Source: an uncultured Actinomycetota bacterium
Lineage (GTDB): Bacteria; Actinomycetota; Actinomycetes; JACCUZ01
NCBI GenBank assembly: GCA_963746465.1
Contig: CAVVAY010000013.1
Span: 10,755 to 74,754, forward strand
Length of the DNA stretch: 64,000 bases
Reading direction: 5' to 3'
Shown here: piece by piece, positions 1 through 42,204 of the stretch
Layout of the letters: each line of letters begins with the position of its first letter
How positions within the stretch are numbered: the first letter of the stretch is position 1
Position numbers and translations under genes: made by a program
The notes under the pieces: generated by a model
What the model was told of the DNA's origin: nothing
The model's database searches: none
Seen by the model: the letters and a program-made list of their open reading frames with translations, nothing else

Positions 1-120
1 CGCGACGTCCATCCGCTCACCGTACGACGGCCCTGTGGACAACCGCGGATCGGCCGCCCCAGGCGTGGGGGCTGTGGACAGCACACCTGCAAGGGCTGCC
101 CGGCCCGGCAGCGTAGGGGC

Positions 121-384
121 ATGCGCGTGACAGTCGAGACCGAGGCGCTCGTCGGGCTGACCACCGGCGTGCGGGGCCTGGCCCGCGCCGCCAGGGCCAT
201 CGATGTGCCGTCTCCCCCGCCGTGCGAGGACGTCGCGGCGGCCGACGCGGTCGGCGCCCTGCTCTCGGTCTGCGCCGAGCAGCTCGGGGCGATGTCCGCG
301 GCGTTGTCGACGGTCGCCGTCCTGGTCGACACGGCCCGGTTCGACTACACCCGGGCCGAGAACCGGGCGGTGCCGCTGCCGTGA
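121..384 (+). CDS. Small 87-aa protein leading a toxin operon; possibly EspC/DUF2580-like (T7SS-associated)
   Basis: ATG at 121. GC3-rich codon usage consistent with coding. Stop TGA 382-384 overlaps GTG 381-383 of the next gene (GTGA coupling). The N-terminal pattern xTVxxExL resembles EspC-like proteins from memory; this is a weak call. Confidence 0.45.
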   Translation: MRVTVETEALVGLTTGVRGLARAARAIDVPSPPPCEDVAAADAVGALLSVCAEQLGAMSAALSTVAVLVDTARFDYTRAENRAVPLP

Positions 385-1478
385 CGGCCACCCTCGATGA
401 TCCGCTGCTCGGCTGGTCGCTCCCGGTCGACGACCCCGCCGTCACCGCCCGCACCGCCGACGGCCTGCTCGCCGCTGCCGACCGGCTCAGCTCGCTCGGG
501 CGCCGGTTGGCGTCGATGCTGCCGGTTCAGCGCTGGTCCGGGGTGGCCTCCGCCGCCGCGGACCAGCGACTGGCCGTCACCGCATTCGCGCTCGGGCTGG
601 AGCGCCGTCGGATGCTGCGCGCGGCCGAGGCGCTGACCCGGTTCAGCGGACAGGTCTCCGCGGCCCGGACACTGGCCGACGAGGCGACCCGGTTGCTGGC
701 CGCCGCGCGGGCCGCCCAGGAGGTGGCTGACCTGACCGGCCCCGGCGGCATCGGGGGGGCAGGTGGGGCCGGCACCCGGCCCTCTGCCGGGTGGGGCGGC
801 CACCGCACCGACGGCGCGCTCTACGACCCGCACGCGGTGGCGCTGCTCGACCGGGCCCGAGGCCGCGCTCACGACGCCCGCAGCTGCTACGACCGGGCAG
901 CCCGCCGTCTCGCCGCTGAGCTCACCGAGCTGTCCGGACGCCGGGTGGTCCGGGCCGGCCTGTCGGCCCGGACCTGGCTCGACCTGGCCGGCTTCGTCCC
1001 GGTGGTCGGCGATGCCGTCGACGCCGGAAACGCGGGGGTCTATTTCGTGCAGGGCCGCTGGGGCGAGGGGCTGCTCACCGCCGCCGCGGTCGTGCCCGGC
1101 CCAGAGGGCTGGATCGCGGGCGGCGCCAAGATCGGCAGGGCGCTGGAGCACGCCGGCGACGTCGCGAAGGTCGTTGACGACGTGCCGGCCGACGTCCGCG
1201 CCCGCTACGTGCTCTCGCACCTCAGCGTCCGCGGCGACAACAAGACGATCCGCATGCTCCCGGACGACGAGTCGGTCGAGCGGTTCTACCGCGACCAGCT
1301 CGAGCACCTTGGCGCGACAGAGGTGACGAGAAGTCGGAGAGGAATCGAATCCGTCACCACCCTGCCTTCAGGAGGGACCATCGGGTTCCGCACGTTCAGC
1401 GACAGCGGCGGCTACACGATCGATGTCGACGGCTTCCCTGGGCTGGGCCTGAAGCGCGTGCACCGGCCGCGAGACTGA
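381..1478 (+). CDS. Polymorphic toxin: WXG100-like N-terminus, pre-toxin TG (PT-TG) domain, uncharacterised C-terminal toxin domain
   Basis: 365 aa from GTG 381; the upstream ATG at 222 would overlap the preceding coding ORF out of frame. Helical N-terminal region carries a W-S-G (WxG) motif at about 531-539. A Gly-rich linker follows. The segment LDLAGFVPVVGDAVDAGN...VVPGPEGWIAGGAKIG (about 975-1136) matches the pre-toxin TG signature (GF[VI]PxVGD ... GxxG). The last ~110 aa (about 1137-1475) has no recognisable catalytic motif. Confidence 0.6.
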   Translation: MTATLDDPLLGWSLPVDDPAVTARTADGLLAAADRLSSLGRRLASMLPVQRWSGVASAAADQRLAVTAFALGLERRRMLRAAEALTRFSGQVSAARTLADEATRLLAAARAAQEVADLTGPGGIGGAGGAGTRPSAGWGGHRTDGALYDPHAVALLDRARGRAHDARSCYDRAARRLAAELTELSGRRVVRAGLSARTWLDLAGFVPVVGDAVDAGNAGVYFVQGRWGEGLLTAAAVVPGPEGWIAGGAKIGRALEHAGDVAKVVDDVPADVRARYVLSHLSVRGDNKTIRMLPDDESVERFYRDQLEHLGATEVTRSRRGIESVTTLPSGGTIGFRTFSDSGGYTIDVDGFPGLGLKRVHRPRD

Positions 1479-1492
1479 GGGAGGATGCCGCC

Positions 1493-1867
1493 GTGCCTGT
1501 CGACGCCGCCCTGATCCCGCAGCTGCGCGCGGACACTCTCGCCGACCTCGAGCGCGACTACGTCAACCTGTCCGCGATGTGTTTCGACGCCGGCCAGCTC
1601 GTCGGTGAGGAGAACCGCCAGATGATCCGCGAGCTGGTTCTCGAGACCCTGGTGAGCCTGATCGACGATCCCGCAGCCAAAGTCGTGGACGCGCCGATGC
1701 GCTACACGTTCACCGACCCCGAGGAGCTGCGCCGCCACTTCGAGGCAGCGTGGCCGCGTGGCCATCGAAACTCGCTGCCCGGACAGCGCATCTTCTGGGT
1801 CCTCAAACGTGATGACGATTCCGGCAACGACGCCGCGGCCCCGAGCTCCGGGCGAGAGGACGCCTGA
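1493..1867 (+). CDS. Putative cognate immunity protein (124 aa)
   Basis: GTG 1493 sits 8 nt after GGAGG (1480-1484) and 14 nt after the toxin stop. It is small and acidic, the expected toxin-immunity layout. No family recognised. Confidence 0.45.
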   Translation: MPVDAALIPQLRADTLADLERDYVNLSAMCFDAGQLVGEENRQMIRELVLETLVSLIDDPAAKVVDAPMRYTFTDPEELRRHFEAAWPRGHRNSLPGQRIFWVLKRDDDSGNDAAAPSSGREDA

Positions 1868-1877
1868 ACCCCGGTGA

Positions 1878-4325
1878 TCAGGCCTTGATCTTCGCGTTCG
1901 ACGGGTCGTAGAGCGGGCGCAGCGATGCCGTTGCGGGGTGCAGCCGGCCGGCCACCTCGACCTGCCAGTCGGCTCCCTCCATCCAGGCCTTGTCGACGAC
2001 CTCGGAGCCCTCGACCATCGCCAGCCCGACCGCACCGCCGAGGGTGTGGCCGTAGGACGCGGCGCGGACGTAGCCCACCGGCTTCCCGTCGCGCAGCACC
2101 GGCTCGGCGTGGTGCAGCATCGGTTCCGGGTCCGCGAGCAGCACCTGGACCAGGCGACGGGTCAGCGGACCTTCCGCCTTCTTCGCCTCGACCGCCGCCC
2201 GCCCGAGGAAGTCGTGGTCGAGGGCCACGGCGAACCCCAGGCCGGCCTCGAGCACCGAGTCGGTGTTGTCGATGTCGTGGCCGTAGTCGCGGTACCCCTT
2301 CTCCATCCGCAGGCTGGCAAGCGACTTCAGCCCCGCGTGCCGCAGGTCGTACGCCGGTCCGGCGGCCACCACCCGGTCGTACAGGTGGGTCGCCTGCTCG
2401 ACCGGGACGTACAGCTCGTAGCCGAGCTCCCCGAGGTAGGTGATCCGGATGCACAGGGCACGGGCGAAGCCGACGTCGATCGAGCGCGCGGTGCGGAACG
2501 GGAACGCCTCGTTGGACAGGTCCACCGACGTCAGCGACTGGAGCAGCTCGCGCGAACGAGGTCCCTGCACGTTGAGCTGGGCGAACCCCGACGTCATGTC
2601 GGTGACGACGACGTGCCGGTCGCCGGCATGCCGCCGCATCCAGGTCTCGGCGTGCCGGTGCGCGGTGTCCGACGCGACCACCCAGTACCGCTCGTCGTCG
2701 AGCTTGGTGACCGTGAGGTCGGCCTCCAGGGTGCCGCCCTCGTTCAGCCACTGGGTGTAGGTGATGACACCGGGCTGCCCGTCGACATGGTTGGCCGAGA
2801 GCTGCTGCAGCAGGCCGCCGGCGTCCCGGCCCTGCACGAGGAACTTTGACATGAACGACATGTCCATCGCGATGACGTCCTCGCGGGCCGCCCGGTGCTC
2901 CGCCGCCCACAGGTCGAACCACTGCGGCTTGCCCCAGGTCAGCGGGCCCGGGTCGGGCGTCTGACCATCGGGGGCGTACCAGTCGGCGCCCTCCCAGCCG
3001 CTGACGTCCCGGAAGTAGGCACCGCGCGCAGCGAGCCGGTCGTGCAGAGCAGACCGCTTCGCGTCGCGGGCCGACTGCATCGAGCGGTTCGGGTAGTGGC
3101 ACTGGTAGACCATGCCGAGCGACTCCACGGTGCGTGTCGCCCGGTACTCCGGGTTGGCCTGGTAGCCGTGCAGGCGGTCGATGTTCATCCCGGTGATGTC
3201 CACGCCCGGTCGCCCGTCGACGATCCAGTGCGCGAGCACCCGGCCCAGCCCGCCACCGGTGAGGATGCCGATCGAGTTCAGCCCGGCAGCGACGAAGTAG
3301 TTGCGCACCTCCGGTGCCTCCCCCACCACGGGCTGGAGGTCCGGGGTGAAGCTCTCCGGCCCGCAGAAGAACTTCTTGATGCCCACCTCGGACGACACCG
3401 GGATCCGGGTCATCGCCTTCTCGAGGTAGGGGCTCATCCGGTCCCAGTCCGGCGCAAGCTCGCCGAACGAGAAGTCCTCGGGAACTCCGCCGACCTGCCA
3501 CGGCGCGCAGACCGCCTCGAAGAGCCCGAGCATCAGGCCGCCGCCCTCTTCACGGAAGTAGCCGTAGCGGGCAGGGTCCTCCAGCACCGGCCAGTCGCCG
3601 GAGATGCCGGGGATCTCCTCGGTGAGCAGGTAGTAGTGCTCGGCGGCCTGCAGCGGGACGCTGACGCCGGTGCGCGCGGCGAGCTGCCGGGCCCACATGC
3701 CGGCGCAGTTCACGACGACCTCGCACTCGACATCGCCGTGAGCTGTCCGTACGCCGGTGACGGCGCCGCGGTCGGTGAGGACGTCGAGCACCGGCACCCC
3801 TTCGGCGATCCGGGCACCTGCCTGTCGAGCGCCGCGGGCCAGCGACATCGTGACGTCGACCGGGTTCGCCCGGCCGTCCTCGGCGACGTAGAAGCCGGCC
3901 AGCAGGTCGTCGGTACGGGCCAGCGGGAACAGCTCGCCGACCTCGCGGGCCGAGATCTCCTGCACATCGACACCACAGAGCCGGTTGAACGCCGACACCC
4001 GGCGGTACTCCTCGAGCCGGTCCGCGTCGCTGGCGACCTCGATGAACCCGACCGGCTTGAACCCGGTGGCGAGACCGGTCTCGGCCTCCAGCCGGGAGTA
4101 CAGGTCCCGGGTGTAGGTGCGCATCTCGGTCGAGGTCTCGGACGTCGAGCCGAAGGTCACCATCAGGCCCGCTGCGTGCCAGGTGGTGCCGCTGGTGAGC
4201 CGGTCCCGCTCCAGCAGCAGGACGTCCTCTCCGAGGTGGGCAAGGTGATAGGCGACCGACGTCCCGATGACACCCCCGCCGATCACGACGACTCGGGCGC
4301 GCTGCGGGAGGAGGGTCTCGGCCAT
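1878..4325 (-). CDS. Dimethylglycine oxidase / sarcosine dehydrogenase family (FAD oxidoreductase fused to GcvT aminomethyltransferase-like domain)
   Basis: 815 aa. N-terminal VVVIGGGVIGTSVAYHLA Rossmann motif (DAO domain). C-terminal half is a glycine-cleavage T-protein fold (..GYELYVP..). Confidence 0.85.
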   Translation of the reverse strand: MAETLLPQRARVVVIGGGVIGTSVAYHLAHLGEDVLLLERDRLTSGTTWHAAGLMVTFGSTSETSTEMRTYTRDLYSRLEAETGLATGFKPVGFIEVASDADRLEEYRRVSAFNRLCGVDVQEISAREVGELFPLARTDDLLAGFYVAEDGRANPVDVTMSLARGARQAGARIAEGVPVLDVLTDRGAVTGVRTAHGDVECEVVVNCAGMWARQLAARTGVSVPLQAAEHYYLLTEEIPGISGDWPVLEDPARYGYFREEGGGLMLGLFEAVCAPWQVGGVPEDFSFGELAPDWDRMSPYLEKAMTRIPVSSEVGIKKFFCGPESFTPDLQPVVGEAPEVRNYFVAAGLNSIGILTGGGLGRVLAHWIVDGRPGVDITGMNIDRLHGYQANPEYRATRTVESLGMVYQCHYPNRSMQSARDAKRSALHDRLAARGAYFRDVSGWEGADWYAPDGQTPDPGPLTWGKPQWFDLWAAEHRAAREDVIAMDMSFMSKFLVQGRDAGGLLQQLSANHVDGQPGVITYTQWLNEGGTLEADLTVTKLDDERYWVVASDTAHRHAETWMRRHAGDRHVVVTDMTSGFAQLNVQGPRSRELLQSLTSVDLSNEAFPFRTARSIDVGFARALCIRITYLGELGYELYVPVEQATHLYDRVVAAGPAYDLRHAGLKSLASLRMEKGYRDYGHDIDNTDSVLEAGLGFAVALDHDFLGRAAVEAKKAEGPLTRRLVQVLLADPEPMLHHAEPVLRDGKPVGYVRAASYGHTLGGAVGLAMVEGSEVVDKAWMEGADWQVEVAGRLHPATASLRPLYDPSNAKIKA

Positions 4326-4388
4326 GCCGGGAGCCTAGGACCCGTCCCCGGCCCTTGCTGACTCCCCGGTCAGTTCACGAGTGCGGGA

Positions 4389-6866
4389 CTACGGCGTCAG
4401 CAGGAGGCGGTGCTCCGCAGCACGCCGGACGACCGGCCTGCTGAAGCGCCACGGCGTGCGGTCGTTGCGCCGCCACAGCTGCGTCTGGTCGGTGTAGTTG
4501 TCGTGGAAGGCATGGCCGCTCGCCCCGGCATGCAGCACCCAGCGTGAGGCGTCCAGGTCGGCCAGGTCGACGACCATTCGCATCGACGGGATCCAGTCGG
4601 TGCGGTAGCCGTCATCGGCGCTCCAGCCGGTCGCGGTCACCGTCGCCTCCCCACCGCCCACCTCGACCCGGCCCCGGTTGACCAGCCACTCGATCGGTGC
4701 GACGCCCGACTGACCGAAGGTCGGGCTCTCCATCGGCAGCGCGTGCAGGTCTCCCCACTGCCAGTCCGCCGGTTCGTCGCCGAGACGGCGGGTCAGGTCG
4801 CCGTAGGCGTCGCCCATCGCGGCGACCAGGATGTCGTCGCGCGACTCGGTGGCCCCGGTCGTCGTGTCGTCCCACCACGGTGAGGTCGGGTCGTCGAGCA
4901 GACCGCTGACCACCTGCATCCAGCGGCTGCCGCCGTCCGCGCGCTGGTTGTGCGGCAGCTGGTCGTCGAAGGTGCGCGCGAGAAGGTGACGCCAGACCGC
5001 GTTGAAGAACGCCGCACCGGCCGAGTCCTCACGCTGGGTGCCGTCCCAGCGGCGTAGCAGGGCGACGGCATCGCGCGCGCGCTGCGGCGCCGTGACCCCC
5101 TCGAGCCACGGCAGCAACGCAGGCGCCAGGTTGTTCCGGGTGTCCCCCTGCAGCCGGACCAGGTCGGCGGTGGTGACGTCGCCGCGGCCGGTCAGGGCCT
5201 CCAGCCGATCGGTGATGCGCGCCGCGCGGTAGCCGAAGTCCCAGTCGTGGGTGAGGAAGACCGGGTACGCCTCCGGCACCACCGGGTTGTTGGCGGTGAC
5301 CAGGAAGCCTGCCTCGGGGTCCAGCGAGCTCGGCAGCTGGTCGAACGGCACAGTGCCCACCCACTCGTCGTCGCCGGTCCAGCCCTGGGCCGGCCAGCGC
5401 CCGTCGTACCCGCTGCGCACCGGGATCTTGCCGGGCGACTGGTAGCCGATGTGACCCGCGGTGTCGGCGAAGACGATGTTCTGCGCCGGCACCTCGAACT
5501 GGTCGGCCGCGACCCGCATCTCGTCCCAGCTGCCCGCCTGGTCGAGCGCGAACAGGGCGTCCATCGTCCGGCCAGGGGTCAGCGCCGTCCACCGCAGCGC
5601 GACCCCGTTCCCGGCGCCGGCGCGACGCCAGCGCTTGGCCACGTCGGAGAGCAGCGGCCCGTGCCGGGTGGCCCGGACCGTGATCCGCCTCGCTTCCTCA
5701 CCGGCGACCGCGATGGTCTCGGTGCGGACGTCGAGCGGCACCTGCTGACCTTCGAACTCGTACGTGTCACCGGTGACCCGTTCCAGGTAGAGGTCCGCGA
5801 CGTCCGGGGCCAGGTTGGTGAAGCCCCAGGCGATCTGCGTGTTGTGCCCGATGACGACACCGGGCACGCCGGAGAAGGTGAAGCCCGCGACGTCGAACGG
5901 GCAGGCATCGCTCACGGTGGTGCAGTGCAGACCCATCTGGGTCCACACCGACGGCAGGCTGGGACCGAGGTGCGGGTCGTTCGCGAGCAGTGGCTGGCCG
6001 GACTCGGTGTACCTCCCCGAGACCACCCAGGAGTTCGACCCGATGCCGCTGCCGTGCGGCCCGAGCAGCTCCGGCACCCGGCCGAGCAGCGCCTGCACAC
6101 CGCGCAGCACCGCGGCCTCACCGGTCGTCGGCACCGCGCGCGCTGCGGACTCGGGCTGCTCCACCGGCAGGTCGGTGTCGGCGAGGATCGTCGGGTGCTC
6201 GCCGTACGGGTACGCCGGGTAGAGCTGCTCGACCTCGTCGCGGCTCAGGGTCCGGGACAGCAGCGCCCGGTCCAGCTCGTCGTCGAGGTTGCTGCGCAGG
6301 TCCCAGGCCATCGCCTTCAGCCAGGCCACCGAGTCCGCGGGCGTCCACGGCTCGACGTGGTAGCCGCGGTTGGTCAGCGCGAGGATGCCGTGCTCGAGGC
6401 TCAGCCGGGAACCGGACCGGTGCTCGAGGTAGGCGTTGACCCCGTCGGCGTACGCCTGCAGGTACTGCAGGGTCGCCGGGGCGAGCAGCTCCAGCTCCTG
6501 CTCGGCGACCCGGCGCCAGCCGAGGGTCCGGACGAACTCGTCGGTCTCGACCTGGTCCGGCCCGAACAGCTCGGACAGCCGGCCGGCGGTGACGTGGCGG
6601 CGGAAGTCCATCTCCCAGAACCGGTCCTGGGCGTGCACGAAGCCCTGCGCACGGAACAGGTCCGCCGCGTCGTCGGCCCACAGCTGCGGCACGCCGTGCT
6701 CGTCGCGGTAGACCGTGACCTCCGCGTGGAGCCCGGCGACCGCGAGAGTCCCGTCGCGCTGCGGGAACGAACGGCGCACCGTCCAGGCGACGAAGAGGCC
6801 GGCGCCGACGGCGAGCACGAGCAGCAGCACGAGACCGCCGACCAGCACCCGCCGCAGCCGTCGCAC
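4389..6866 (-). CDS. Penicillin acylase (amidase) family protein, Ntn-hydrolase S45
   Basis: 825 aa. Signal/TM N-terminus. Motifs: FVHAQDRFWEMD, SNSWVVSG, GxxxGHN. Confidence 0.85.
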   Translation of the reverse strand: MRRLRRVLVGGLVLLLVLAVGAGLFVAWTVRRSFPQRDGTLAVAGLHAEVTVYRDEHGVPQLWADDAADLFRAQGFVHAQDRFWEMDFRRHVTAGRLSELFGPDQVETDEFVRTLGWRRVAEQELELLAPATLQYLQAYADGVNAYLEHRSGSRLSLEHGILALTNRGYHVEPWTPADSVAWLKAMAWDLRSNLDDELDRALLSRTLSRDEVEQLYPAYPYGEHPTILADTDLPVEQPESAARAVPTTGEAAVLRGVQALLGRVPELLGPHGSGIGSNSWVVSGRYTESGQPLLANDPHLGPSLPSVWTQMGLHCTTVSDACPFDVAGFTFSGVPGVVIGHNTQIAWGFTNLAPDVADLYLERVTGDTYEFEGQQVPLDVRTETIAVAGEEARRITVRATRHGPLLSDVAKRWRRAGAGNGVALRWTALTPGRTMDALFALDQAGSWDEMRVAADQFEVPAQNIVFADTAGHIGYQSPGKIPVRSGYDGRWPAQGWTGDDEWVGTVPFDQLPSSLDPEAGFLVTANNPVVPEAYPVFLTHDWDFGYRAARITDRLEALTGRGDVTTADLVRLQGDTRNNLAPALLPWLEGVTAPQRARDAVALLRRWDGTQREDSAGAAFFNAVWRHLLARTFDDQLPHNQRADGGSRWMQVVSGLLDDPTSPWWDDTTTGATESRDDILVAAMGDAYGDLTRRLGDEPADWQWGDLHALPMESPTFGQSGVAPIEWLVNRGRVEVGGGEATVTATGWSADDGYRTDWIPSMRMVVDLADLDASRWVLHAGASGHAFHDNYTDQTQLWRRNDRTPWRFSRPVVRRAAEHRLLLTP

Positions 6867-6887: not shown

Positions 6888-7589
6888 TCAGACGGCGGTC
6901 CGGAGGCGGGAGAGGTCCACTGCAGGCTCGCCGGCGGCGACCAGCTCGGCGATCCGTCGGGCGTGGTCCTCTGCGGCGGTGTGGGCGGCCTGCAGCGAGG
7001 CGGCGCCCAGGTGCCTGAGGTCGGCCATGGCGGGCACCGTCGCGGCCAGCGTCAGCTCGGCGGTGACCATCGTGACGTCCAGCTTCCATACGTCGGACAG
7101 GATGCGGCGCAGGTAGGGCTCGGCGTGGTCCCAGCCCTCGCGCGGCGTGCCGGGGCCGTAGCCACCTCCCCTGCTGTGCACGATCACGGCGTGCCGACCG
7201 GCGATCGGCTCGCCCTCGCCGGCACGCAGCGGCGACGCGGTGAAGATGCGGTCCACCCACGCCTGCACGCTGGCCGGGTTGGACCAGTTGTACAGCGGTA
7301 CGGCGAACAGGTACGCGTCCGAGGAGAGCAGCTCGTCGGTCAACGTCCCGGCCAGCTCGAGGGCTGCCCGCTGCTCCGGGCTGCGGTCCTCGGCGGGGAC
7401 GAAGCGCGCGCCCACGGCCGTTCTGTCGATGAACGGGACCGGATCGGCGCCGAGGTCGCGGCGCAGCACGGTGCCGTCCGGGTGCTCGAGCGACCAGACC
7501 CGCTCGAAGGTGTCGGCCACCGAGCGGGAGACCGAGGTCGCCCCGGCCAGGCTGGCGTCGAGGCGGAACAGCTGGGGCGAGCGGGTCAT
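6888..7589 (-). CDS. FMN-dependent NADH-azoreductase (AzoR-like flavodoxin-fold quinone reductase)
   Basis: Start taken at internal ATG (MTRSPQLFRLDASL...). Pattern PxPxID...RSPEQ...AxPxYN...SRGG is typical of AzoR. Confidence 0.7.
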   Translation of the reverse strand: MTRSPQLFRLDASLAGATSVSRSVADTFERVWSLEHPDGTVLRRDLGADPVPFIDRTAVGARFVPAEDRSPEQRAALELAGTLTDELLSSDAYLFAVPLYNWSNPASVQAWVDRIFTASPLRAGEGEPIAGRHAVIVHSRGGGYGPGTPREGWDHAEPYLRRILSDVWKLDVTMVTAELTLAATVPAMADLRHLGAASLQAAHTAAEDHARRIAELVAAGEPAVDLSRLRTAV

Positions 7590-24525: not shown

Positions 24526-27500
24526 GTGGGCGTGACGGTGGGATCACAACAGGCACGGGTGCCCGGCACCCGGGACGCCGTCGATGTGGTCACCGAGGCC
24601 GGCCTGCGGGTCGGGGTGCTCGGGCAGCTGGTCGCGACCCGGGACGGCACCTCGCTGGAGCTCGGCGGCCCGCGCCAGCGCGCGGTCCTGGCGCTGCTGG
24701 TGCTGGCCCGCGGCGACGTCGTCCCGGCCGACCGCCTGGTCGACGCTCTCTGGGGCGACGCCACCCCGCCGAGTGCCACCAGTGCACTGCAGGCCTACGT
24801 CTCGCACCTGCGCAAGCGGATGGAACCCGACCGCGGCCCCCGCGACCGGGACAGCGTGATCGCCCGGCAGGGCCCTGGCTACGCGCTTCGGGTCGAGGAC
24901 GACTCGGTAGACGCGTGGCGCTTCGAGCGCCTGCTGCGACAGGCCGGCGGCTCCGACCCGGCCACCGCGCAGCGACTGCTCGAGGCGGCGCTGCAGCTGT
25001 GGCGCGGCCCGGCGTACGCCGACCACGCCGGGCAGACCTGGGTCGACGGCGAGGTCGCCCGCCTGGCGGGGCTGCGTGAGGTCGCCCGCGAGCAGCTGCT
25101 CGAGGCGCGGCTGGGTCAGGGCGAGTCGGCCGTGCTGGTGCCGGAGATCGAGGGGCTCGTCGCCGAGGACCCGATGCGTGAGGAGCGCTGGCGGCTGCTG
25201 GTGCTCGCGCTGTACCGAGCCCACCGGCAGGCGGACGCCCTGGCCGCGTTGCGCCGGGCGCGCTCGACGCTGGCCGACGAGCTGGGTGTGGACCCGGGGC
25301 CGGCCTTGCGTGCCCTGGAGGGCGAGGTGCTCGCGCAGTCGCCGTCGTTGGACGCTCCGGCCCGGGTGGTGGCCGAGCGCGAGCCCGCGCCCTCGGTCCC
25401 CGGACCGCGGGCCGGTCGCGGCGAGCTCCGGGCTACCCCGGCCGCGGTGATGGTGGGCCGCGACCCCGAGGTGCGGGTGCTGCGCGGCGCGCTGGCCGAC
25501 GCCGTCGACGGGCAGGGACGGCTGGCACTGATCCGCGGCCCGGCCGGCATCGGCAAGAGCCGGCTGCTCCAGGAGGTACGGCGGCACGCCGAGGCGGAAG
25601 GAGCGCTCGTGCTGACCGCCCGGGGCAGCCAGCTGGAACGGGCGTTCGCGTTCGGGGCGGTCCGCCAGCTGTTCGAGGGCACCCTCAGCGACCCGGCGCG
25701 GCGCGTCGAGCTGCTGCGCGGGTCCGCCTCCTCGGCGTCCTCGGTCTTCGGCGAGATCCCCTCCGCCGACCCCGCGGAGCGCGCCGACGGGTCGTTCGCG
25801 GTGCTGCACGGCCTGTACTGGCTGACCGTGAACCTGGCCGAGCAGCAGCCCGTGGTGCTGGCCGTCGACGACGTGCAGTGGTGCGACACCGGCTCGCTGC
25901 GGGCGCTGGCCTTCCTCTTGCGCCGGCTCGAAGGACTGCCGGTCCTCATCGCCGCGACCCTGCGCACCGGCGAGGTGCACGAGGACGAGCCGTTGCTCGC
26001 CGAGCTGGCCGAGGACCACGCGACGGTGCAGGTGCACCCCGGGCCGCTGGCGCCGGAGGCGACCGCGGAGCTCGTGCGCGAGCGGCTCGGCGCGGAGGCA
26101 CAGGAGCCCTTCGTCGCCGCCTGCCACCGCACGACCGGCGGCAACCCGCTGCTCCTGCGCCAGCTGCTGCGCGCCCTGCAGGTGGAAGGCGTGCGGCCCG
26201 ACGCGTCGCACGCCGACACGGTGAACGCGATCGGTTCACGAGCCGTGTCGAGCATGGTCCTGATGCGCCTCGCCCGGCTGCCGGCCGACTGCACGGCGGT
26301 GGGCCGCGCGGTGTCCGTCCTCGGCGACGGCTGCCTCCTCACCGACGTCGCCGCCCTCAGCGGGCTGGACGAGTCAGCCACCGCGGCCGCGCTGGCCGCA
26401 CTCTCCCGCGCCGAGGTGCTGCGGTCGGACGACCAGCTGGGTTTCGTGCACCCCCTGGTCCGGGACGCGGTCTACCAGGCGCTGTCGTCCGCCGAGCGCG
26501 AGCTGCACCACGAACGGGCCGCCGCCCTGCTGCTCGCGCGCGCAGCGACTCCGGAGCAGGTCGCCGCGCACCTGCTGCTCGCCCCGCGGCGCGGCAGCAA
26601 CGATGCCGTGCGGGTGCTGCGGCTCGCGGCGACGACAGCCGCCGAGCGAGGCGCCGCGGACGCCGCCTCGACCTACCTCGAGCGGGCACTCGCCGAGCCA
26701 CCCGAGGCCGCCGAGCGCCCGGACATCCTCTTCGAGCTGGGTCACCTCGGGACGATGACCGACGGTCCGGCCGCCCTCGCCCACCTGCGCGAGGCCTACG
26801 AGACCGTTCCCGACGTCGCCGTCCGAGCCGAGGTCGCCACCATGCTGGCCCGCACGCTGGTCTTCGCCGGCGGGCCCGGGGAGGCCACCCGGTTCGCCCG
26901 GGAGGCCGCGGCCGCACTGCCCGACGAGCTGGACGACGCCCGGCAGGGGCTGCACGGGCTGGAGCGGATCGGCGGCTACATGCACGGCCTCCCGGAGTCC
27001 GAGTGGGGACGCGGCCGGCTGGAGGTCCGCGGCGACGGCGTGGGCGCCCGGATGCTCGCCGCGACGCTGGCCTGGGAGGAGCTGATCAGCAACGGCGACC
27101 GGCTGCGCTGCATCGAGCTCGCGCGGTTCGCCCTCGCCGGCGGGCATCTGCAGCGCGTCGACACCGGCCTGCTCTGGGTGGTCTCGGCGTTCGTCCAGGA
27201 GATGAGCGAGGTCGACATGGGCGACTTCTGGGACCGCACCCTGGCCGACGCGTTCGCCCGGGGCTCGTTGTTCTCCGCGCTGTCGGTGCATCTCTGGCGC
27301 GGGCACATGCTCTGGCACCGCGGCCAGCTGCGTGAGGCGCTGCGGTCGGTGCAGACGTCGAACGAGCAGAGCGAGCAGTGGGGGGCCCCGGATGTCGGTG
27401 TCCCCTACGGCCAGGCGTTCAGCATCGGCATCCTGCTCGAGCAGGGCGAGATCGCGGAGGCGCGCCGGTACGTCGACGGGGTGCTGCACCAGTCCCGGAT

Positions 27501-28215
27501 CGGTGACGGGGCCCGGCTGTTCGACGAGAACCACGCCCGGCTGATGGCCGCCGAGGGCCGCCATGCCGAGGCGCTGGCCGCCCTGGAGGCGGCGACGACG
27601 ATGCAGACCAGCGTGATCAACCCGGTGTGGCGGCCGTGGCGTTCCTACCGGGCGCCGGTGCTGGCCGCGCTCGGCCGGGTCGAGGAGGCCCGGGCACTGA
27701 TGGCCGAGGAGGTGAGGCTGGCCCGGCACTGGGGGGCGCCGTCGGTGCTCGGCCGCACGCTGCGCGGCGCCGGCGAGCTCGCCGCGGACGACGACGCCGA
27801 GCCGGTGCTGCGCGAGGCCTACCAGCTGCTCCGGCCCTCGGTAGCCCGCTACGAGCGGGCCTGCGCCGAGCTGGCGCTGGCCCGAGTGACCGGTGACCCG
27901 GCCGAGCGGACCGCGCTGCTCGGCAGCGCTCTCGCCCTGGCCGCCGAGTGCGGCTCACCGGGGCTGTACCGGCAGGTCGGCCACGAGCTGGCCTCCGACG
28001 GGGCGGAGGAACCCGCGCCGTTCGACGAGGTGGTGTCGCTGACCGCCACCGAGCGGCGGGTCGCCCAGCTCGCCGCGGCCGGCGCGGCACCCAGCGCGGT
28101 CGCCCAGGAGCTGTTCCTCACCCCCGCGGTGGTCGAGCACACCCTCGCCGAGGTCCGCCAGCGGCTCGGTGTGCAGACCGACGCCGAGCTCGGCGCCGCA
28201 CTGGCCCCCGCCTGA
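24526..28215 (+). CDS. Large transcriptional regulator: N-terminal SARP (OmpR-wHTH + BTAD), NB-ARC/AAA ATPase, TPR-like repeats, C-terminal LuxR/GerE HTH
   Basis: 1229 aa. N-terminus: RQRAVLALLVLARGDVVPADRLVDALWGD...YVSHLRK (SARP). Walker A: LIRGPAGIGKSRLL. Last 60 aa: LTATERRVAQLAAAG...VVEHTLAEVRQRLGV (LuxR-type HTH). Confidence 0.8.
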   Translation: MGVTVGSQQARVPGTRDAVDVVTEAGLRVGVLGQLVATRDGTSLELGGPRQRAVLALLVLARGDVVPADRLVDALWGDATPPSATSALQAYVSHLRKRMEPDRGPRDRDSVIARQGPGYALRVEDDSVDAWRFERLLRQAGGSDPATAQRLLEAALQLWRGPAYADHAGQTWVDGEVARLAGLREVAREQLLEARLGQGESAVLVPEIEGLVAEDPMREERWRLLVLALYRAHRQADALAALRRARSTLADELGVDPGPALRALEGEVLAQSPSLDAPARVVAEREPAPSVPGPRAGRGELRATPAAVMVGRDPEVRVLRGALADAVDGQGRLALIRGPAGIGKSRLLQEVRRHAEAEGALVLTARGSQLERAFAFGAVRQLFEGTLSDPARRVELLRGSASSASSVFGEIPSADPAERADGSFAVLHGLYWLTVNLAEQQPVVLAVDDVQWCDTGSLRALAFLLRRLEGLPVLIAATLRTGEVHEDEPLLAELAEDHATVQVHPGPLAPEATAELVRERLGAEAQEPFVAACHRTTGGNPLLLRQLLRALQVEGVRPDASHADTVNAIGSRAVSSMVLMRLARLPADCTAVGRAVSVLGDGCLLTDVAALSGLDESATAAALAALSRAEVLRSDDQLGFVHPLVRDAVYQALSSAERELHHERAAALLLARAATPEQVAAHLLLAPRRGSNDAVRVLRLAATTAAERGAADAASTYLERALAEPPEAAERPDILFELGHLGTMTDGPAALAHLREAYETVPDVAVRAEVATMLARTLVFAGGPGEATRFAREAAAALPDELDDARQGLHGLERIGGYMHGLPESEWGRGRLEVRGDGVGARMLAATLAWEELISNGDRLRCIELARFALAGGHLQRVDTGLLWVVSAFVQEMSEVDMGDFWDRTLADAFARGSLFSALSVHLWRGHMLWHRGQLREALRSVQTSNEQSEQWGAPDVGVPYGQAFSIGILLEQGEIAEARRYVDGVLHQSRIGDGARLFDENHARLMAAEGRHAEALAALEAATTMQTSVINPVWRPWRSYRAPVLAALGRVEEARALMAEEVRLARHWGAPSVLGRTLRGAGELAADDDAEPVLREAYQLLRPSVARYERACAELALARVTGDPAERTALLGSALALAAECGSPGLYRQVGHELASDGAEEPAPFDEVVSLTATERRVAQLAAAGAAPSAVAQELFLTPAVVEHTLAEVRQRLGVQTDAELGAALAPA

Positions 28216-31556: not shown

Positions 31557-31877
31557 TCAGCTCCCCCGGTAGGTCGAGTAGGCGTAGGGCGAGAGCAGCA
31601 GCGGCACGTGCAGGTGGCCGTCCGGGTCGTCGACGGTGAACGTCACGACGACCTCGGGGTAGAAGGTCTCGCGGCCCTGCGCGGCGAACCAGTCGCCGGT
31701 CGCGAAGACCACCCGGTAGGTGCCGCGGTCGAGCCGGTCCGGGCCGAGCCCGCGGACCCGGCCGTCGTCATCGGTGCGTGCCTCGACCGACAGGCCGCGG
31801 CCCTCGAGCCGCACCGCGACGCCGCGGGCCGGCAGGCCGCTGACGCTGTCCAGCACGTGGGTGGTGACCACGCTCAT
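31557..31877 (-). CDS. uraH: 5-hydroxyisourate hydrolase (transthyretin-like)
   Basis: 106 aa ending in YRGS, the diagnostic HIUase C-terminus. HVLD near the N-terminus. ATGA overlap with the upstream gene. Confidence 0.85.
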   Translation of the reverse strand: MSVVTTHVLDSVSGLPARGVAVRLEGRGLSVEARTDDDGRVRGLGPDRLDRGTYRVVFATGDWFAAQGRETFYPEVVVTFTVDDPDGHLHVPLLLSPYAYSTYRGS

Positions 31878-33589
31878 CGGGTCGGTCCTCCTTCGTCCAG
31901 CAGACGCTGCAGCCGCAGCCGGTTGATGCTGCCGAGCTCGGCGCGCACGACCGTGCGCTCGTGCACCGGGTCGTTGCCGAGCCGGGAGCGCAGCACGTCG
32001 AGCAGCTCGTCGCCGCTGCGGCCGCTGGCGCAGACCAGGTAGACGTGGCCGAACCGCTTCTCGTACTCGCGGTTGCCCTCGGCCAGCGCGGCCTTCACGT
32101 CGTCGCCGACACCGGCCTGCTCGCGTTGCGAGGAGGAGTGGGCCGACCGCTCGCCGATCCGGGGGTGGCCGGTCAGGGCGTCGTCGACGTCCTGCTCGGC
32201 GAGGACGCCGAGCGCACGTTCGGCTGCGGCGAGCAGCCGGTCGGCCGAGCCGTAGGGCGCGGCGGCGACGACCAGGTCGGCCCACCGCGGCGAGGCGCAC
32301 ACCGTCAGCAGGAGCTCGCGCAGCTCGGCCGCCGGCAACCTGTCCAGCCACGGGTTCGCGCCGTCGCGCCGGGCCAGCTGCCGAAGGGTGTCGCCGTCCG
32401 GGCCGCCGGCAGCCGCGACCTCGTCGGCGTCCAGCGCCCCGCAGTCCAGGCCGCGCAGCAGGAAGCCGGCGAGCGCGAACGCGGTGGCCGGCTCGTCGAG
32501 CACCCCGCCCGACTGGCGGTCCAGGTAGCTGCGCAGCCGGGCGACCGCGGCGGGCAGCCCCTCCCGGTAGAACGCGAACGTCGCGAGGTAGCGGGTCGGC
32601 AGCTGCGCGGGGTGCAGGTCCCAGCCCTGGTAGATGCCGCGCTCCAGCGAGCGCCGCACGAGGCGTGCGTGCAGGGCCCACGCCGTCTCGACGTGTGCCC
32701 GGTCCCCGAGCGGCAGCACGTTGGTCGACCCGTCGCTCACGCGCACCCCGGTCTGGGCAGCGGCCACCTGCATCACGGCTTTCGCGTGGTCGGCGACCGG
32801 GTGCTCCATCGACTGGTGCGCAGCGGCGACACCGAGCGAGGCGCTGTAGTCGTAGGTGCCGTAGTGCAGCCCGGTGCATCTGCCGCCCGCTGCGTGCACG
32901 ACGCGGGCGACGGTCGCCGTGCCGTCGGCACCGAGCACGGCCTGCGGCGTCTCGACCTGCACCTCGAAGCGCAGCGACGAGGGCGGCAGGCCGTGGGCGC
33001 CTTCGAGCCGCTCGCAGAGCAGCACCATGGCCTGCACCTGGTCGACCGAGGTGACCTTGGGCAGCGTGGTGACGAAGCCCGGCGGCGGTGCGCCGAGGAC
33101 GTCGAGCACCAGGTCCAGCGAGCGGACCCCGCGCCGCCGGTTGGGCGCCTCCAGCGACTTGATGCGGACGCCGCTCACGAAAGGTGCACCCGCGCCGACC
33201 AGCTTCGCGAGGACCTCGCCGGCGAGGCGGGCGTGGCGGTCCTCCTCGTCGTCCGGCCGGGCGCCGTAGCCGTCCTCGAGGTCCAGCCGCAGGTCCTCGA
33301 CCGGCTCGCGGGCCAGCTTCGCCAGCACCCGCGGCCACACCTCGTCCACCACGGCTGCGCCCAGTCCGGTGATCCGCGCCATCGACCCGGCGTCCTCGGC
33401 GGCCACCGCGTCCAACGCCTCGGCACCGACACGGTTCGCGAGGTCGGCCGCGGCCCGGTCGGCCGGCAGGTACAGGGTGTGCACCGGTTGCCGGCCTGAC
33501 GGCTCCCCCGGCCAGCCCTCGGTCAGCGCCGCGTCGGCGGGGGCGAGCAGCTCGTCGAGCTCGCGCAGGACGTCGTCGGGCAGGGTCAT
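31874..33589 (-). CDS. Fusion protein: N-terminal HpcH/HpaI-CitE-like (aldolase/citrate-lyase beta fold) domain + C-terminal OHCU decarboxylase
   Basis: 571 aa from MTLPDDVLRELDELL. N-terminal ~400 aa carries LDLEDGYG and TLPKV(T)S motifs, compare CitE/HpcH DLED and PKVES. C-terminal ~170 aa carries HPRIGER...S..EQ and the conserved YLVCASGRSG block of OHCU decarboxylase. No internal ATG or SD separates the two parts. Confidence 0.7.
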   Translation of the reverse strand: MTLPDDVLRELDELLAPADAALTEGWPGEPSGRQPVHTLYLPADRAAADLANRVGAEALDAVAAEDAGSMARITGLGAAVVDEVWPRVLAKLAREPVEDLRLDLEDGYGARPDDEEDRHARLAGEVLAKLVGAGAPFVSGVRIKSLEAPNRRRGVRSLDLVLDVLGAPPPGFVTTLPKVTSVDQVQAMVLLCERLEGAHGLPPSSLRFEVQVETPQAVLGADGTATVARVVHAAGGRCTGLHYGTYDYSASLGVAAAHQSMEHPVADHAKAVMQVAAAQTGVRVSDGSTNVLPLGDRAHVETAWALHARLVRRSLERGIYQGWDLHPAQLPTRYLATFAFYREGLPAAVARLRSYLDRQSGGVLDEPATAFALAGFLLRGLDCGALDADEVAAAGGPDGDTLRQLARRDGANPWLDRLPAAELRELLLTVCASPRWADLVVAAAPYGSADRLLAAAERALGVLAEQDVDDALTGHPRIGERSAHSSSQREQAGVGDDVKAALAEGNREYEKRFGHVYLVCASGRSGDELLDVLRSRLGNDPVHERTVVRAELGSINRLRLQRLLDEGGPTR

Positions 33590-34620
33590 CCGGTCGCTTC
33601 CCACCGGTCCCGCAGCGCGGACAGGCCGTCGTCGGTCGGACGGCCCCAGAGCCGCAGCCGGGCCATCCCGCCGTCCGGGTAGACGTCGAGCCGCACGTGG
33701 GTGGCCGGCGCCGACGGCTCGGGGAGAACGACCCGGTGCCGGGTGTCGGGCTGCAGCGCGGTGCGGTCGAGCAGCGGGAACCACGACTCGCGATCGGCCG
33801 GGTCACCTTCGCCGTCGTACGCGGACAGGGCCGCCGCACCGGGTGCGTTCCCGAGGAACCAGGTCGTGTCCAGCTCGACGACGCGCACCGTGCCGCGGGC
33901 AGCCAGCCGCACCTCTACCCAGTCGTTGCCGTCGTCGCGCCGCCGCGCGGTCTCCCACCCCTCCCCCATGGTGCGGGCCAGCCCCGGCGCGATGAGCCGG
34001 TCCGGCGACCCGTAGAACAGGTTGCTGCAGCCGGTGACCCGTCCACCGAGCTCGAGCGCGGCGAGGTCGACGGTGCCGAGCGCCTCGACCGGCCGCGGGT
34101 CGGCGACGACCTGGCCGTGCACCCGTAGCCGCGCCACCCCGCCGTCCGGGTGGATGGTCAGGCGCACGTGGGTCCAGCGGCTCTCCGACGAGACCGGGAA
34201 GACGTTCGCGGTGTCGCCCTGCAGCGCCGAGCGTTCGACCAGCGTCGTCCACTCGGCCGCACGCAGGGCGGCCACGGCCGGGTGGCCGTCGACGGCCAGA
34301 CCTTCTACCGAGGCCTCGCTCGGGAAGTTGCCGGTGAAGTGGCTGGTGTCCACGACCACGGCGCGCACCACGCCAGGTGCCCCGAGCCGCACGATCGCCT
34401 CGTCACGTCCGGGTTCGCGCCGCCGCCGGGTCTCCCAGCCGTCGTAGACCTGGCCCTTGGCACCGAACGTCCGTGGCGTGAACGCGGCCGGCCCGGGGTT
34501 GATCAGGTTCTCCCGCCCTGCGAACAGCTCGTCGTTGGCCCACACCACCGCGCCGCCGAACGTCCGCACCGCGAGGTCCGGCAGGGCCAGCAGGTCCTGG
34601 GTGGTCGCCTCCTGGGCCAT
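33586..34620 (-). CDS. alc: Allantoicase
   Basis: 344 aa with two allantoicase repeats (VVWANDELFAGRENLINP..., GCSNLFYGSPDRLI...). Confidence 0.85.
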   Translation of the reverse strand: MAQEATTQDLLALPDLAVRTFGGAVVWANDELFAGRENLINPGPAAFTPRTFGAKGQVYDGWETRRRREPGRDEAIVRLGAPGVVRAVVVDTSHFTGNFPSEASVEGLAVDGHPAVAALRAAEWTTLVERSALQGDTANVFPVSSESRWTHVRLTIHPDGGVARLRVHGQVVADPRPVEALGTVDLAALELGGRVTGCSNLFYGSPDRLIAPGLARTMGEGWETARRRDDGNDWVEVRLAARGTVRVVELDTTWFLGNAPGAAALSAYDGEGDPADRESWFPLLDRTALQPDTRHRVVLPEPSAPATHVRLDVYPDGGMARLRLWGRPTDDGLSALRDRWEATG

Positions 34621-35912
34621 CACGCCTCCCCTCTCGCCAGCAGCCGTCCGGTCGCCGGACCCGGTCGGTCCGCGCCGATCGGCGTCCCAGCCAACCATGT
34701 CCTTCGCACGACACCGGTGAGCCGCGCACCGGCGTACGGCGACACCGGGTTGCGGTGGTGCAGCAGCGCCGGGTCGACCACCTGCTCGGCGTCCGGGTCG
34801 AACGCGACGAGGTCGGCCGCCGCGCCGGCCCTGATCCCGCCCTTGGTGCTCAGACCTACCAGGGCGGCCGGTGCCGACGACATCCAGCGCACCACGTCGG
34901 CGAGCGGGTGACCGCGCCGGCGTCCCTCGGTCCACACCAGGGCGAGCCCCAGCTGCAGCGAGGAGATGCCGCCCCAGGCGGTGCCGAAGTCGCCGGTGTC
35001 CAGGTGCTTGAGGTCGGCGGTGCACGGCGAGTGGTCGCTGACGACGAGGTCGATGGTGCCGGCGGCCAGGCCGGCCCAGAGCGCCTCCCGGTTGGCCTCG
35101 TCCCGGACCGGCGGGCAGCACTTGTACGACGTCGCCCCGTCCGGCACGTCCTCGGCGCGCAGCACCAGGTAGTGCGGGCAGGTCTCGACCGTCACCCGAA
35201 CACCGTCGGCCTTCGCGGCCGCAAGCGCCGGCAGCGCCGCCGCGCTGGACAGGTGCACGACGTGCAGCCTCGCCCCGGTCCGGCGCGCCGCGTCGATGAC
35301 GCCGTCGATGGCGCGGTCCTCGGCACTGTGCGGGCGGGACGCGAGAAACCTCCGGTACGCCGGGCCGGCCGGCGGCGGTGCCGCGGCGAGGACGGCCGGG
35401 TCCTCGGCGTGCACCAGCAGCAGCCCGTCGGCCGCCGCCACCTCCTCGGCCGCGGCGAGCAGCCCGGCCGGCGGGAGCGCGGGGAACTCCTCGACGCCGG
35501 AGTCGGGCAGGAAGCACTTGACGCCCATCACGCCGGCGTCGAGCAGAGCGCCCAGCCGGCCGAGGTTGCCGGGCACGGCGCCGCCCCAGAAGCCGACGTC
35601 GACCAGGCACTGGCCCTCGGCGGCCGCGCGCTTGACCGCCAGCGACTCGGGGTCAAGCGTCGGCGGCAGGCTGTTGAGCGGCATGTCCACGATCGTCGTC
35701 ACGCCGCCGGCCGCCGCGGCGCGGGTCGCCGAGGCGAACCCCTCCCACTCGGTACGGCCCGGCTCGTTCACGTGCACGTGCGTGTCCACCAGCCCGGGCA
35801 GCAGGAGGACGTCGTCCCCGAGGTCGACCACCTGGCAGCCCGCTCCGCCGCTGGCCGACCGGTCCAGCGGCCCGACCTCGGAGATCACACCGCCCGTGAC
35901 TGTGACGGTCAC
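34620..35912 (-). CDS. allB: Allantoinase (cyclic amidohydrolase)
   Basis: 430 aa from GTG ([16 protein letters not shown]...) preceded by a GGAGG SD. Metal ligands [23 protein letters not shown]..., DHSP. Confidence 0.8.
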
Positions 35913-35926
35913 TGCCTCCTCCCCCG

Positions 35927-35970
35927 CACCTATAGCCCTGCTAGCGGCACCGCTAGCAGGGCTATAGGTG
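35927..35970. repeat. Perfect 44-bp palindrome (21-bp arms, 2-nt centre), locally AT-rich, between xdh Mo-subunit stop and allantoinase start
   Basis: CACCTATAGCCCTGCTAGCGG-CA-CCGCTAGCAGGGCTATAGGTG; every arm position pairs. TATAG/CTAGC tracts stand out in a ~70% GC background. No T-tract follows on either strand. Confidence 0.7.
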
Positions 35971-36064
35971 GTGGAGAGATCACCGTCGCCATCAGCGCCG
36001 CGGACGGGAGGTGGCAGCACGGCACGGGCGGCGTGCACGACGAGGTCGGGCCGGGCCGATCGGG

Positions 36065-39723: not shown

Positions 39724-40196
39724 GCCCGCATCCGATCGGCCGCCAGCCGGACCGCGTCGAGGATCTTCTCGTAGCCGGTGCAGCGGCACAGGTTGCCGGC
39801 GAGCGCCTCGCGGACCGTGTCGTCGTCCGGCGACGGCACCCGCTGCAGCAGGTCGTGCACCGCGACGACCAGGCCGGGCGTGCAGAAGCCGCACTGCACG
39901 GCGCCGGTCTCCAGGAAGGCGGTCTGCACCGGGTGCAGCCGCTCGGCCGCCTCGTCGTCGGCCAGGCCCTCCACCGTGACGACCTCGCGGCCCTCGGCCT
40001 GACCCGCCGCCACCAGGCAGGCGCACACGACGTCACCGTCGAGGTAGACCGAGCACGAGCCGCACTCGCCCTGCTCGCAGGCGTTCTTCGATCCCGGCAG
40101 TCCGAGCCGCTCACGGAGCAGGTAGAGCAGGCTCTCGCCCTCCCACACGTCGTCGGCCTGCCGGCGCTCGCCGTTGACCGTGAGCTCCACCCTCAT
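39720..40196 (-). CDS. (2Fe-2S)-binding small subunit of xanthine dehydrogenase (CoxS-like)
   Basis: 158 aa with CEQGECGSC and CGFCTPG...CRCTGY cysteine motifs. Confidence 0.85.
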
Positions 40197-41071: not shown

Positions 41072-41121
41072 TCCGACGACCCCTTCCCTCGGTGGGAGTG
41101 AACATAGGGCGTCCGGAGCGG

Positions 41122-42072: not shown

Positions 42073-42204
42073 CGGGTCACCGTACGCCGGATCGACGATC
42101 CCCGTCGTACGACCGCAAACGCGGACCAACTGCCCTTGACCGGGCAACGACCTGCTCCCTAGGGTCGCGCAGCAGGAGAGACCTCCACATGCGGGAGGAC
42201 AGGT

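Follow-up and report, generated by a model that had tools for sequence, protein, structure and literature searches.

The stretch of DNA analysed here (the window) comprises 64,000 nucleotides (nt) from an uncultured high-GC member of the Actinomycetota, and carries three consecutive plus-strand genes near its start. Comparison at the sequence level indicates, with good though not complete confidence, that these genes form a chromosomal polymorphic toxin/immunity cassette with a type VII-type carrier. Coordinates are positions in the window, and residue numbers are those of the 365-residue toxin unless the helper is named. The features are as follows, with open reading frames (ORFs) measured in amino acids (aa) and the GC content of third codon positions abbreviated GC3.

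121-384, plus strand: helper gene; ORF of 87 aa with an ATG start and a GC3 of 0.95, product acidic and helical.
381-1478, plus strand: candidate polymorphic toxin gene; 365 aa, GTG start in a GTGA overlap with the helper stop.
381-935, plus strand: helical carrier, residues 1-185 of the toxin.
954-1178, plus strand: pre-toxin linker module, residues 192-266.
1185-1475, plus strand: putative toxin tip, residues 269-365 (97 aa).
1479-1485, plus strand: Shine-Dalgarno sequence GGGAGGA, read from the sequence, 7 nt 5' of the GTG of the next gene.
1493-1867, plus strand: putative immunity gene; 124 aa, GTG start.

The three genes, proposed at these positions in an earlier sequence-only reading of the window, were all present as placed, the immunity ORF with its own Shine-Dalgarno sequence. 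Likewise, the motifs quoted there were found where expected, i.e. WSG at residues 52-54, a Gly-rich segment at 120-131, LDLAGFVPVVGDAVD at 200-214, VVPGPEGW at 237-244 and a tip running to residue 365. GC3 lies between 0.85 and 0.95 across all three ORFs, and the ORF starts coincide with the N-termini of orthologues, the toxin orthologues aligning from residue 1. A longer in-frame start at 222 was rejected, as the orthologue N-termini align from 381, and antisense ORFs at 17-454, 345-1307 and 1412-2035 were rejected as high-GC artefacts.

A homologue search with the toxin returned 53 relatives. The match extends over the whole toxin in 37 of them, at 44-100% identity, while seven (P0038-P0044, including one from a Sporichthyaceae metagenome-assembled genome, MAG) end after the carrier in a Pro/Arg-rich tail. 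A further eight (P0045-P0052) carry a Colicin_D tRNase tip instead (PF11429, down to 6.9e-10), together with an N-terminal PF21725 'Putative T7SS secretion signal domain' (T7SS, type VII secretion system). In the alignment the carrier is kept in 52 proteins up to approximately residue 265, just past GDVAKVVDD, where a sharp breakpoint separates the shared residues 1-265 from three alternative C-terminal states, namely the window tip, Colicin_D and the Pro/Arg tail. In orthologous loci with the window tip (L001-L003) the full set of three genes has been retained at one and the same syntenic position as in the window. At this site, between CSD/S4_2 and DAO-GCV_T, the tipless loci (L005 and L006, 8001-8879) have kept the helper, and the immunity gene is absent. 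In the Colicin_D cassette (L004), which occupies a different genomic site from the window cassette, a homologous 87-aa helper precedes the toxin gene and a PF09204 Colicin_immun gene follows it. A helper homologue directly precedes the carrier in each of the three cassette types (window tip, Colicin-D and tipless), and in combination the gene contexts of L001-L006 reveal that the helper is coupled to the carrier and the downstream gene to the tip.

The fixed chromosomal site was found with the tip present, with the tip absent and in a decayed state. The tipless orthologues may represent either decayed toxins or carriers with a toxin-independent role. In the MAG La3_metabat2.260 (L008, ~3740-6793) two cassettes lie in tandem, the first consisting of a helper and a frameshifted tip-type toxin that runs into a different ORF, the second of a helper and the tipless copy P0044; this arrangement could reflect pseudogenisation or an error of MAG assembly. 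In a further locus (L007, 3977-7383) the toxin P0024 and a 118-aa immunity gene lie ~2 kb off the usual S4_2/DAO site and the helper (7066-7383) stands alone at the site, in what looks like a local rearrangement that parted helper from toxin.

The tip was without family assignment, in agreement with the sequence-only reading, and matched no Pfam or NCBIfam model. A profile built from the tip only, run against 1.8 billion representative proteins, gave 46 matches at E<1e-3 (representative clusters). Four matches to repeat proteins (P0083, P0084, P0086 and P0088) were set aside as likely spurious; in all the others the tip match lies at the extreme C-terminus. The carriers comprise proteins with WXG100, WXG100_2 or T7SS_signal N-termini (Pfam) or WXG100_ESAT6 (NCBIfam), Rhs_assc_core and YD-repeat proteins, and short proteins with Sec signal peptides. 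In each of 38 members checked, the tip falls outside every Pfam and NCBIfam model. On a short contig (L014, 1-2116) an array was observed of a 181-aa ORF, a tip toxin with a Sec signal (P0089), an immunity-family gene and a Tox-REase-7 protein, i.e. a multi-toxin island that holds the window tip family.

An AlphaFold2 model of residues 253-365 reached a mean confidence (pLDDT) of 88 and a predicted template modelling score (pTM) of 0.79. The tip is soluble and basic, with a predicted beta-alpha-beta5 topology (helix 296-310; strands 312-318, 321-327, 333-337 and 346-350). Foldseek with this model returned nothing below E 0.4, and sequence-profile searches of the PDB with the full toxin, the tip and the immunity protein found no relative. 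The family is marked by the signature R337-x-x-S340-x-S342-G343-G344-x-T346-I-D348 (nt 1389-1424) and H361 (nt 1461-1463), with further positions at G285, R291 (mostly), G311, G321 and G331. All of these except R291 are conserved in 35-42 of 43 sequences, and R337, S340, S342, T346, D348 and H361 in 36-42 of 43.

The 124-aa downstream protein is acidic, as had been proposed, with a pI of 4.6, and has neither a signal peptide nor a transmembrane segment (maximum KD19 1.0), which suggests that the tip has its target in the cytoplasm. Its direct homologues number 23, all of them close and free of Pfam domains, and its gene is kept 3' of the toxin in the orthologous loci. At 14 out of 14 distant tip loci, whatever the carrier, the gene that follows directly is a member of a single family; it encodes 112-142 aa and in many cases overlaps the stop codon of the toxin. 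For the first four loci the pairwise phmmer E-values within this family range from 1e-15 to 5e-5, and for ten metagenome loci the E-values against the family profile range from 5e-46 to 6e-7; the metagenome scan used a narrower tip alignment, the broad one being too diverse. When the family of the window protein was aligned with the distant downstream family, hhalign returned a probability of 87.1% (E 3.9e-6) over 95 colinear columns, which cover both proteins almost from end to end. This value depended on alignment diversity: small alignments gave 5.9% and then 41.7%, and 87.1% was reached once more diverse members had been added on both sides. The 124-aa ORF thus appears to be a remote member of the family found downstream of distant tips, and would be the cognate immunity protein of the window toxin.

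Comparison hence establishes the modularity of the protein, the co-variation of tip and putative immunity gene, and the membership of tip and immunity protein in two recurrent partner families, whereas toxicity of the tip, and its neutralisation by the 124-aa protein, are what these patterns would predict. The arrangement put forward in the sequence-only reading, of a helper, a WXG-style polymorphic toxin with an unassigned tip and a cognate immunity protein in a satellite locus, is strongly supported by the co-variation and by the recurrence of the tip on other carriers.

The evolutionary rates of the parts were compared between the window and the L001 lineage, as amino-acid identity and as the ratio of non-synonymous to synonymous substitution (dN/dS).

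Tip: identity 59%, dN/dS 0.58.
Immunity: identity 69%, dN/dS 0.59.
Helper: identity 74%, dN/dS 0.68.
Carrier: identity 82%, dN/dS 0.28.
Flanking DAO-GCV_T gene: identity 95%, dN/dS 0.09.

The dN of tip and immunity gene is ~15 times that of the flanking gene. The GC content of tip and immunity gene is ~67%, that of the carrier 77% and that of the window 72.5%, a difference to which amino-acid composition contributes. Both patterns fit a fast-evolving, exchangeable toxin/immunity unit that may have been grafted onto a more constrained carrier.

With regard to activity, our preferred guess, though a doubtful one, is that the tip may be a metal-independent RNase whose active residues would be R337, S340/S342/T346, D348 and H361, placed on adjacent strands. 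In favour are the order of a helix followed by an antiparallel sheet and the spread of the R/S/T/D/H residues over successive strands, both reminiscent of BECR and microbial RNase sites, as well as the tRNase carried by a sister cassette and the cytoplasmic nature of the immunity protein. The tip shows no significant similarity to RNases in structure or profile, and two results speak against an RNase: many equally weak structure matches have the VOC/glyoxalase fold, and hhalign of the tip against the family's own Colicin-D tips gave a probability of 1%, on which ground a relation to those tips was rejected. An ADP-ribosyltransferase was rejected as well, the domain being too short and R and SxS only 3 residues apart, as was a membrane-acting toxin, given a soluble, basic tip and a cytoplasmic immunity protein. 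In an alternative that we consider unlikely, the tip would be no RNase; it would be a module of the VOC-like type (beta-alpha-beta-beta-beta), or some other enzyme, with a cytoplasmic target other than nucleic acid, and might act once it has dimerised. The strand order, beta-alpha-beta-beta-beta with two further strands, fits one VOC module; the conserved R/S/S/T/D/H set, however, is without the usual His/Glu metal ligand pairs. The one toxin among the weak matches of the tip, 5T86_A, can be cited on either side, having been read as a VOC toxin (PMC9424270) and as BECR (bioRxiv 10.64898/2026.05.10.723254).

Between carrier and tip, the linker of residues 192-266 was predicted at low confidence (pLDDT 35-59). 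It carries the conserved stretches LDLAGFVPVVGDAVD (nt 978-1022) and VVPGPEGW (nt 1089-1112), with conserved cores VPVVGDAVD and VPGPxGW in which P207, P239, G240, G243 and W244 are invariant. This segment had been taken for a clear PT-TG domain, a designation that did not hold: PF14449 gave no match on the window protein at E<=10, and reached only 2 of 52 family members, with E-values of at least 2.8. Nor did PF14449 match in two proteins carrying the same linker module, the Rhs protein of a Chloroflexota locus (L010) and P0120. Used by itself as the query, the pre-toxin module retrieved one homologue and no PF14449-annotated proteins, and a scan of genome contigs gave four loci only, all from MAGs. 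In the Chloroflexota protein the module follows the Rhs core and precedes a tip of another kind, and its presence there and in P0120 suggests that the segment behaves as a portable pre-toxin linker. PT-TG has been described as a low-confidence prediction with a short conserved Gly/Asp-containing loop between trafficking domain and toxin (PMC13483458). By analogy, the window linker may be called PT-TG-like in its position, predicted disorder and short conserved loop; the likeness would be one of function, not of membership in PF14449. At L010 (24-5076, MAG STL-CHL39) the Rhs/YD-repeat protein is split over two frames, and past the Rhs core the module (VGFVPVVGDAVD...AAVPWVG) is followed by an unrelated ~110-aa tip and a 185-aa downstream ORF, neither with a Pfam match.

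The full-length model (pLDDT 79) shows the carrier as a helix at residues 19-44, a loop at 45-54 containing W52-S-G54 (nt 534-542), a second helix at 55-119, a Gly-rich low-confidence linker at 120-131 and a third helix at 150-185. The WxG motif thus falls in the turn between the first two helices of a hairpin modelled with high confidence, and W52 and G54 are at least 90% conserved. The Gly-rich segment between helices 2 and 3, GPGGIGGAGGAG (738-773, residues 120-131), includes a 7-residue insertion that was seen in none of the aligned orthologues. The carrier has no signal peptide. Against Pfam the window toxin matched neither WXG100 (PF06013) nor T7SS_signal (PF21725), only EspA_EspE at E=0.038 and, at noise level, DUF4265. 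Across the family, PF21725 matches 20 of 52 members, one of them at the gathering score (best 27.6 bits versus a cut-off of 27), and weak EspA_EspE matches occur in 11 of 52. The sequence-only reading had named the lack of a WXG or PT-TG profile match above noise as telling against it; taken at face value this is what was found on the window protein, and the PT-TG assignment falls. Support for a WXG-type carrier comes from the relatives and the predicted structure, and the overall reading is upheld by the comparison of loci. Structural comparison of the carrier gave the following scores and numbers of aligned residues.

PE25: 10.2, 78.
PPE15: 10.1, 151.
PPE4: 9.6, 144.
PPE41: 9.2, 152.
EsxA: 9.7 and 9.3, 88 and 88.
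EsxOP: 8.8, 84.
EsxGH: 8.6, 77.

Generic helical hairpins score about as well against the carrier as these PE, PPE and Esx proteins. The helper is predicted as two helices around a Pro-rich turn, PSPPPCED, and carries a YxxxD/E motif, Y76-T-R-A-E80 in helper numbering (nt 346-360), 7 residues before its C-terminus. This motif, which is short and weak alone, was present in 7 of 7 helper copies read (window, L001, L003, L004, L005, L007 and L009), as YRRVD in the Colicin-D cassette. The proposal of an EspC/DUF2580-like helper found no profile support, as the window helper had no Pfam match, including to EspC (PF10824) and WXG100, and the best result came from the orthologue in L003 (PF10824 E=0.12, 13.3 bits versus a cut-off of 23.5). 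A clear WXG100 helper occurs with a window-type tip in assembly GCA_000744785.1 (L015), where a 98-aa WXG100 protein, a WXG100_2 protein with the tip and a 112-aa immunity-family gene follow one another.

ESX substrates of the PE/PPE and Esx kinds follow the logic seen here, in which a WxG protein goes with a small YxxxD/E protein whose gene directly precedes it, and ESX-type systems are widespread in Actinomycetes. By analogy with these substrates, the 87-aa helper, through its C-terminal YxxxD/E, would pair with the WxG-bearing three-helix carrier in a PE/PPE- or Esx-like heterodimer, and together the two would make up the signal for export through a type VII (ESX-type) system whose genes would lie in another part of the genome. 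The flexible conserved linker would join the carrier to the 97-aa basic tip, which may act in the cytoplasm of a competitor cell; in the producer, the acidic cytoplasmic 124-aa protein would bind and block the tip. Tip and immunity gene behave as one exchangeable unit. A more far-reaching version takes two statements jointly: that carrier and YxxxD/E helper are a PE/PPE-like export pair for interbacterial killing in T7SSa organisms, and that the tip (RxxSxSGGxTID...H) and its partner (DDW...PW...PxPGxxxW) are an undescribed toxin/immunity pair with a new fold or activity, neither BECR RNase nor VOC, common to type VII, Rhs and Sec delivery in soil Actinomycetota and neighbouring phyla. As a whole this combination seems to us rather unlikely.

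Beyond the two results on the RNase, three further points weigh against the proposed scheme. The cassette has been passed on vertically and keeps a fixed syntenic position between housekeeping genes, which is less typical of mobile toxin cassettes. The largest or nearest ORFs of the window, 20 in all, were checked and contained no EccC, EccB, EccD or mycosin gene; their products serve ordinary metabolism and transport, apart from one regulator. The statement that the window holds no EccC/EssC machinery stands to that extent. Finally, the link between the two immunity families rests on one profile-profile score of 87%, short of near-certainty.

The second of these points leads to the possibility that the genes are a toxin/immunity cassette whose export takes another route, such as an unknown pathway, release by lysis or vesicles, the WxG and YxxxD/E likeness being superficial. 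The missing WXG100 and T7SS_signal matches of the window toxin, the missing WXG100 and EspC matches of the helper and the delivery of the same tip by Rhs and Sec carriers elsewhere would all agree with this. However, the conservation of W52 and G54 in the inter-helix turn, the YxxxD/E motif in every helper copy read, the PF21725 matches within the family, the alignment of PPE15, PPE4 and PPE41 over 144-152 residues, the lack of a signal peptide on the carrier and the general prevalence of ESX-type systems in Actinomycetes argue for type VII export of the toxin, and make another route improbable.

That the locus encodes a non-toxic ESX substrate pair (EspA/EspC- or PE/PPE-like) with a physiological C-terminal domain, the 124-aa protein being a chaperone or regulator, would suit the stable place among housekeeping genes in several lineages, the weak EspA_EspE matches and the toxin-independent role that tipless orthologues allow, but is very improbable given that the same carrier bears a Colicin-D tRNase with a Colicin-D immunity gene, that the tip ends Rhs toxins and occurs in an array with Tox-REase-7, that the downstream gene is there when the tip is and missing when it is not, and that both outpace the flanking gene in dN.

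The overall design of such a toxin/immunity cassette is already known; only the tip and immunity families are new. The polymorphic toxin framework is reportedly that of Zhang et al. 2012. In Firmicutes, polymorphic toxins with WXG/LXG carriers are established, their genes being preceded by those of helical helpers and followed by immunity genes (PMC5555719, PMC10801868). A 2026 survey described WXG (W10XG) + PT-TG toxins that have a constant region of ~260 residues and helper genes on their upstream side; many of the tips had no name, and six were validated (PMC13483458). The window cassette shares with the WXG/LXG T7SS toxins and their Lap helpers the order of small helical helper, toxin and immunity gene, the constant N-terminal ~260 aa (helical WxG carrier and low-confidence linker) followed by a variable tip without known family, and a cytoplasmic immunity protein without signal peptide. 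It differs in its host, an actinomycetote, whose system would be T7SSa rather than T7SSb, and in its syntenic, vertically inherited position away from secretion genes. In contrast to LXG and W10XG proteins, the carrier family matches PF21725 and is PPE-like; unlike the Lap proteins, the helper has a YxxxD/E motif and no Lap (DUF3130/DUF3958) or WXG100 match; and unlike W10XG + PT-TG toxins, the linker has no PF14449 match.

Similarly, the small YxxxD/E partner directly 5' of a larger WxG helical protein recalls the mycobacterial PE/PPE and EspC/EspA pairs, the latter also through the weak EspA_EspE and EspC profile hints in the window family. However, no PE, PPE, EspA or EspC Pfam match reaches threshold in this family, and the window protein ends in a putative toxin tip with a cognate immunity gene, generally absent from those pairs (CpnT being a separate case); nor was an EspG-type chaperone seen near the cassette. 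The Colicin D tRNase/ImmD cassettes (P0045-P0052, L004) have the same helper, carrier, pre-toxin module and breakpoint, with the immunity gene directly downstream, whereas the tip and immunity families are unrelated and the genomic site is different. With BECR-type RNases the tip shares its small size (~95 aa), basic character and C-terminal position, one helix followed by an antiparallel sheet, conserved R, H, S/T and acidic residues on adjacent strands and an acidic cytoplasmic immunity protein; it departs from them in having no sequence-profile link and an extra N-terminal strand that makes the order beta-alpha-beta5.

What is specific to the window locus is the actinobacterial T7SSa setting, with a PPE-like PF21725 carrier and a YxxxD/E helper, the fixed chromosomal site with its several tip states, and the two families of toxin tip and immunity protein, unnamed in Pfam and NCBIfam, without a solved relative and both present on type VII, Rhs and Sec platforms. 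Type VII antibacterial toxins are well characterised in Firmicutes and hardly in Actinomycetota, and the cassette offers a compact testable example. Should the tip prove toxic, the repertoire of interbacterial toxins would gain a further enzyme family, and the site with its differing tip states would provide a natural series for studying the exchange of toxin ends. The general picture of polymorphic toxin systems is unchanged by the cassette.

Upstream, the window had been thought to open inside the cassette promoter. Instead, bases 1-84 (minus strand) are the 5' end of a divergent S4-domain gene, of the S4_2 RNA-binding type, whose GTG lies at 84-82 on the minus strand and which is orthologous to 9429-9701 of L001. 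The gap between this gene and the helper ATG at 121 is 36 nt, so that the cassette promoter must overlap the S4_2 gene or the transcript must be nearly leaderless. The upstream context was drawn from orthologous loci; an exact-sequence contig look-up of the window toxin matched nothing. Within the window, no paralogues or orphan immunity genes were found, PADLOC and NCBIfam gave no match on the window proteins, and a cluster look-up returned them without names or accessions.

Downstream, a penicillin amidase gene (PF01804, E 1e-238) at 4389-6866 on the minus strand lies between the DAO-GCV_T and Flavodoxin_2 genes. Since these two are adjacent in the related locus L003, the amidase is a lineage-specific insertion beside the cassette. 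Two other parts of the window are unrelated to the cassette: a gene at 24526-28215 (plus strand) for a 1229-aa BTAD/AAA_16/Trans_reg_C regulator (SARP-LAL-like), and a probable purine/ureide catabolism block at 31874-44999, with a DUF6986-OHCU decarboxylase fusion, two amidohydrolases and malate synthase.

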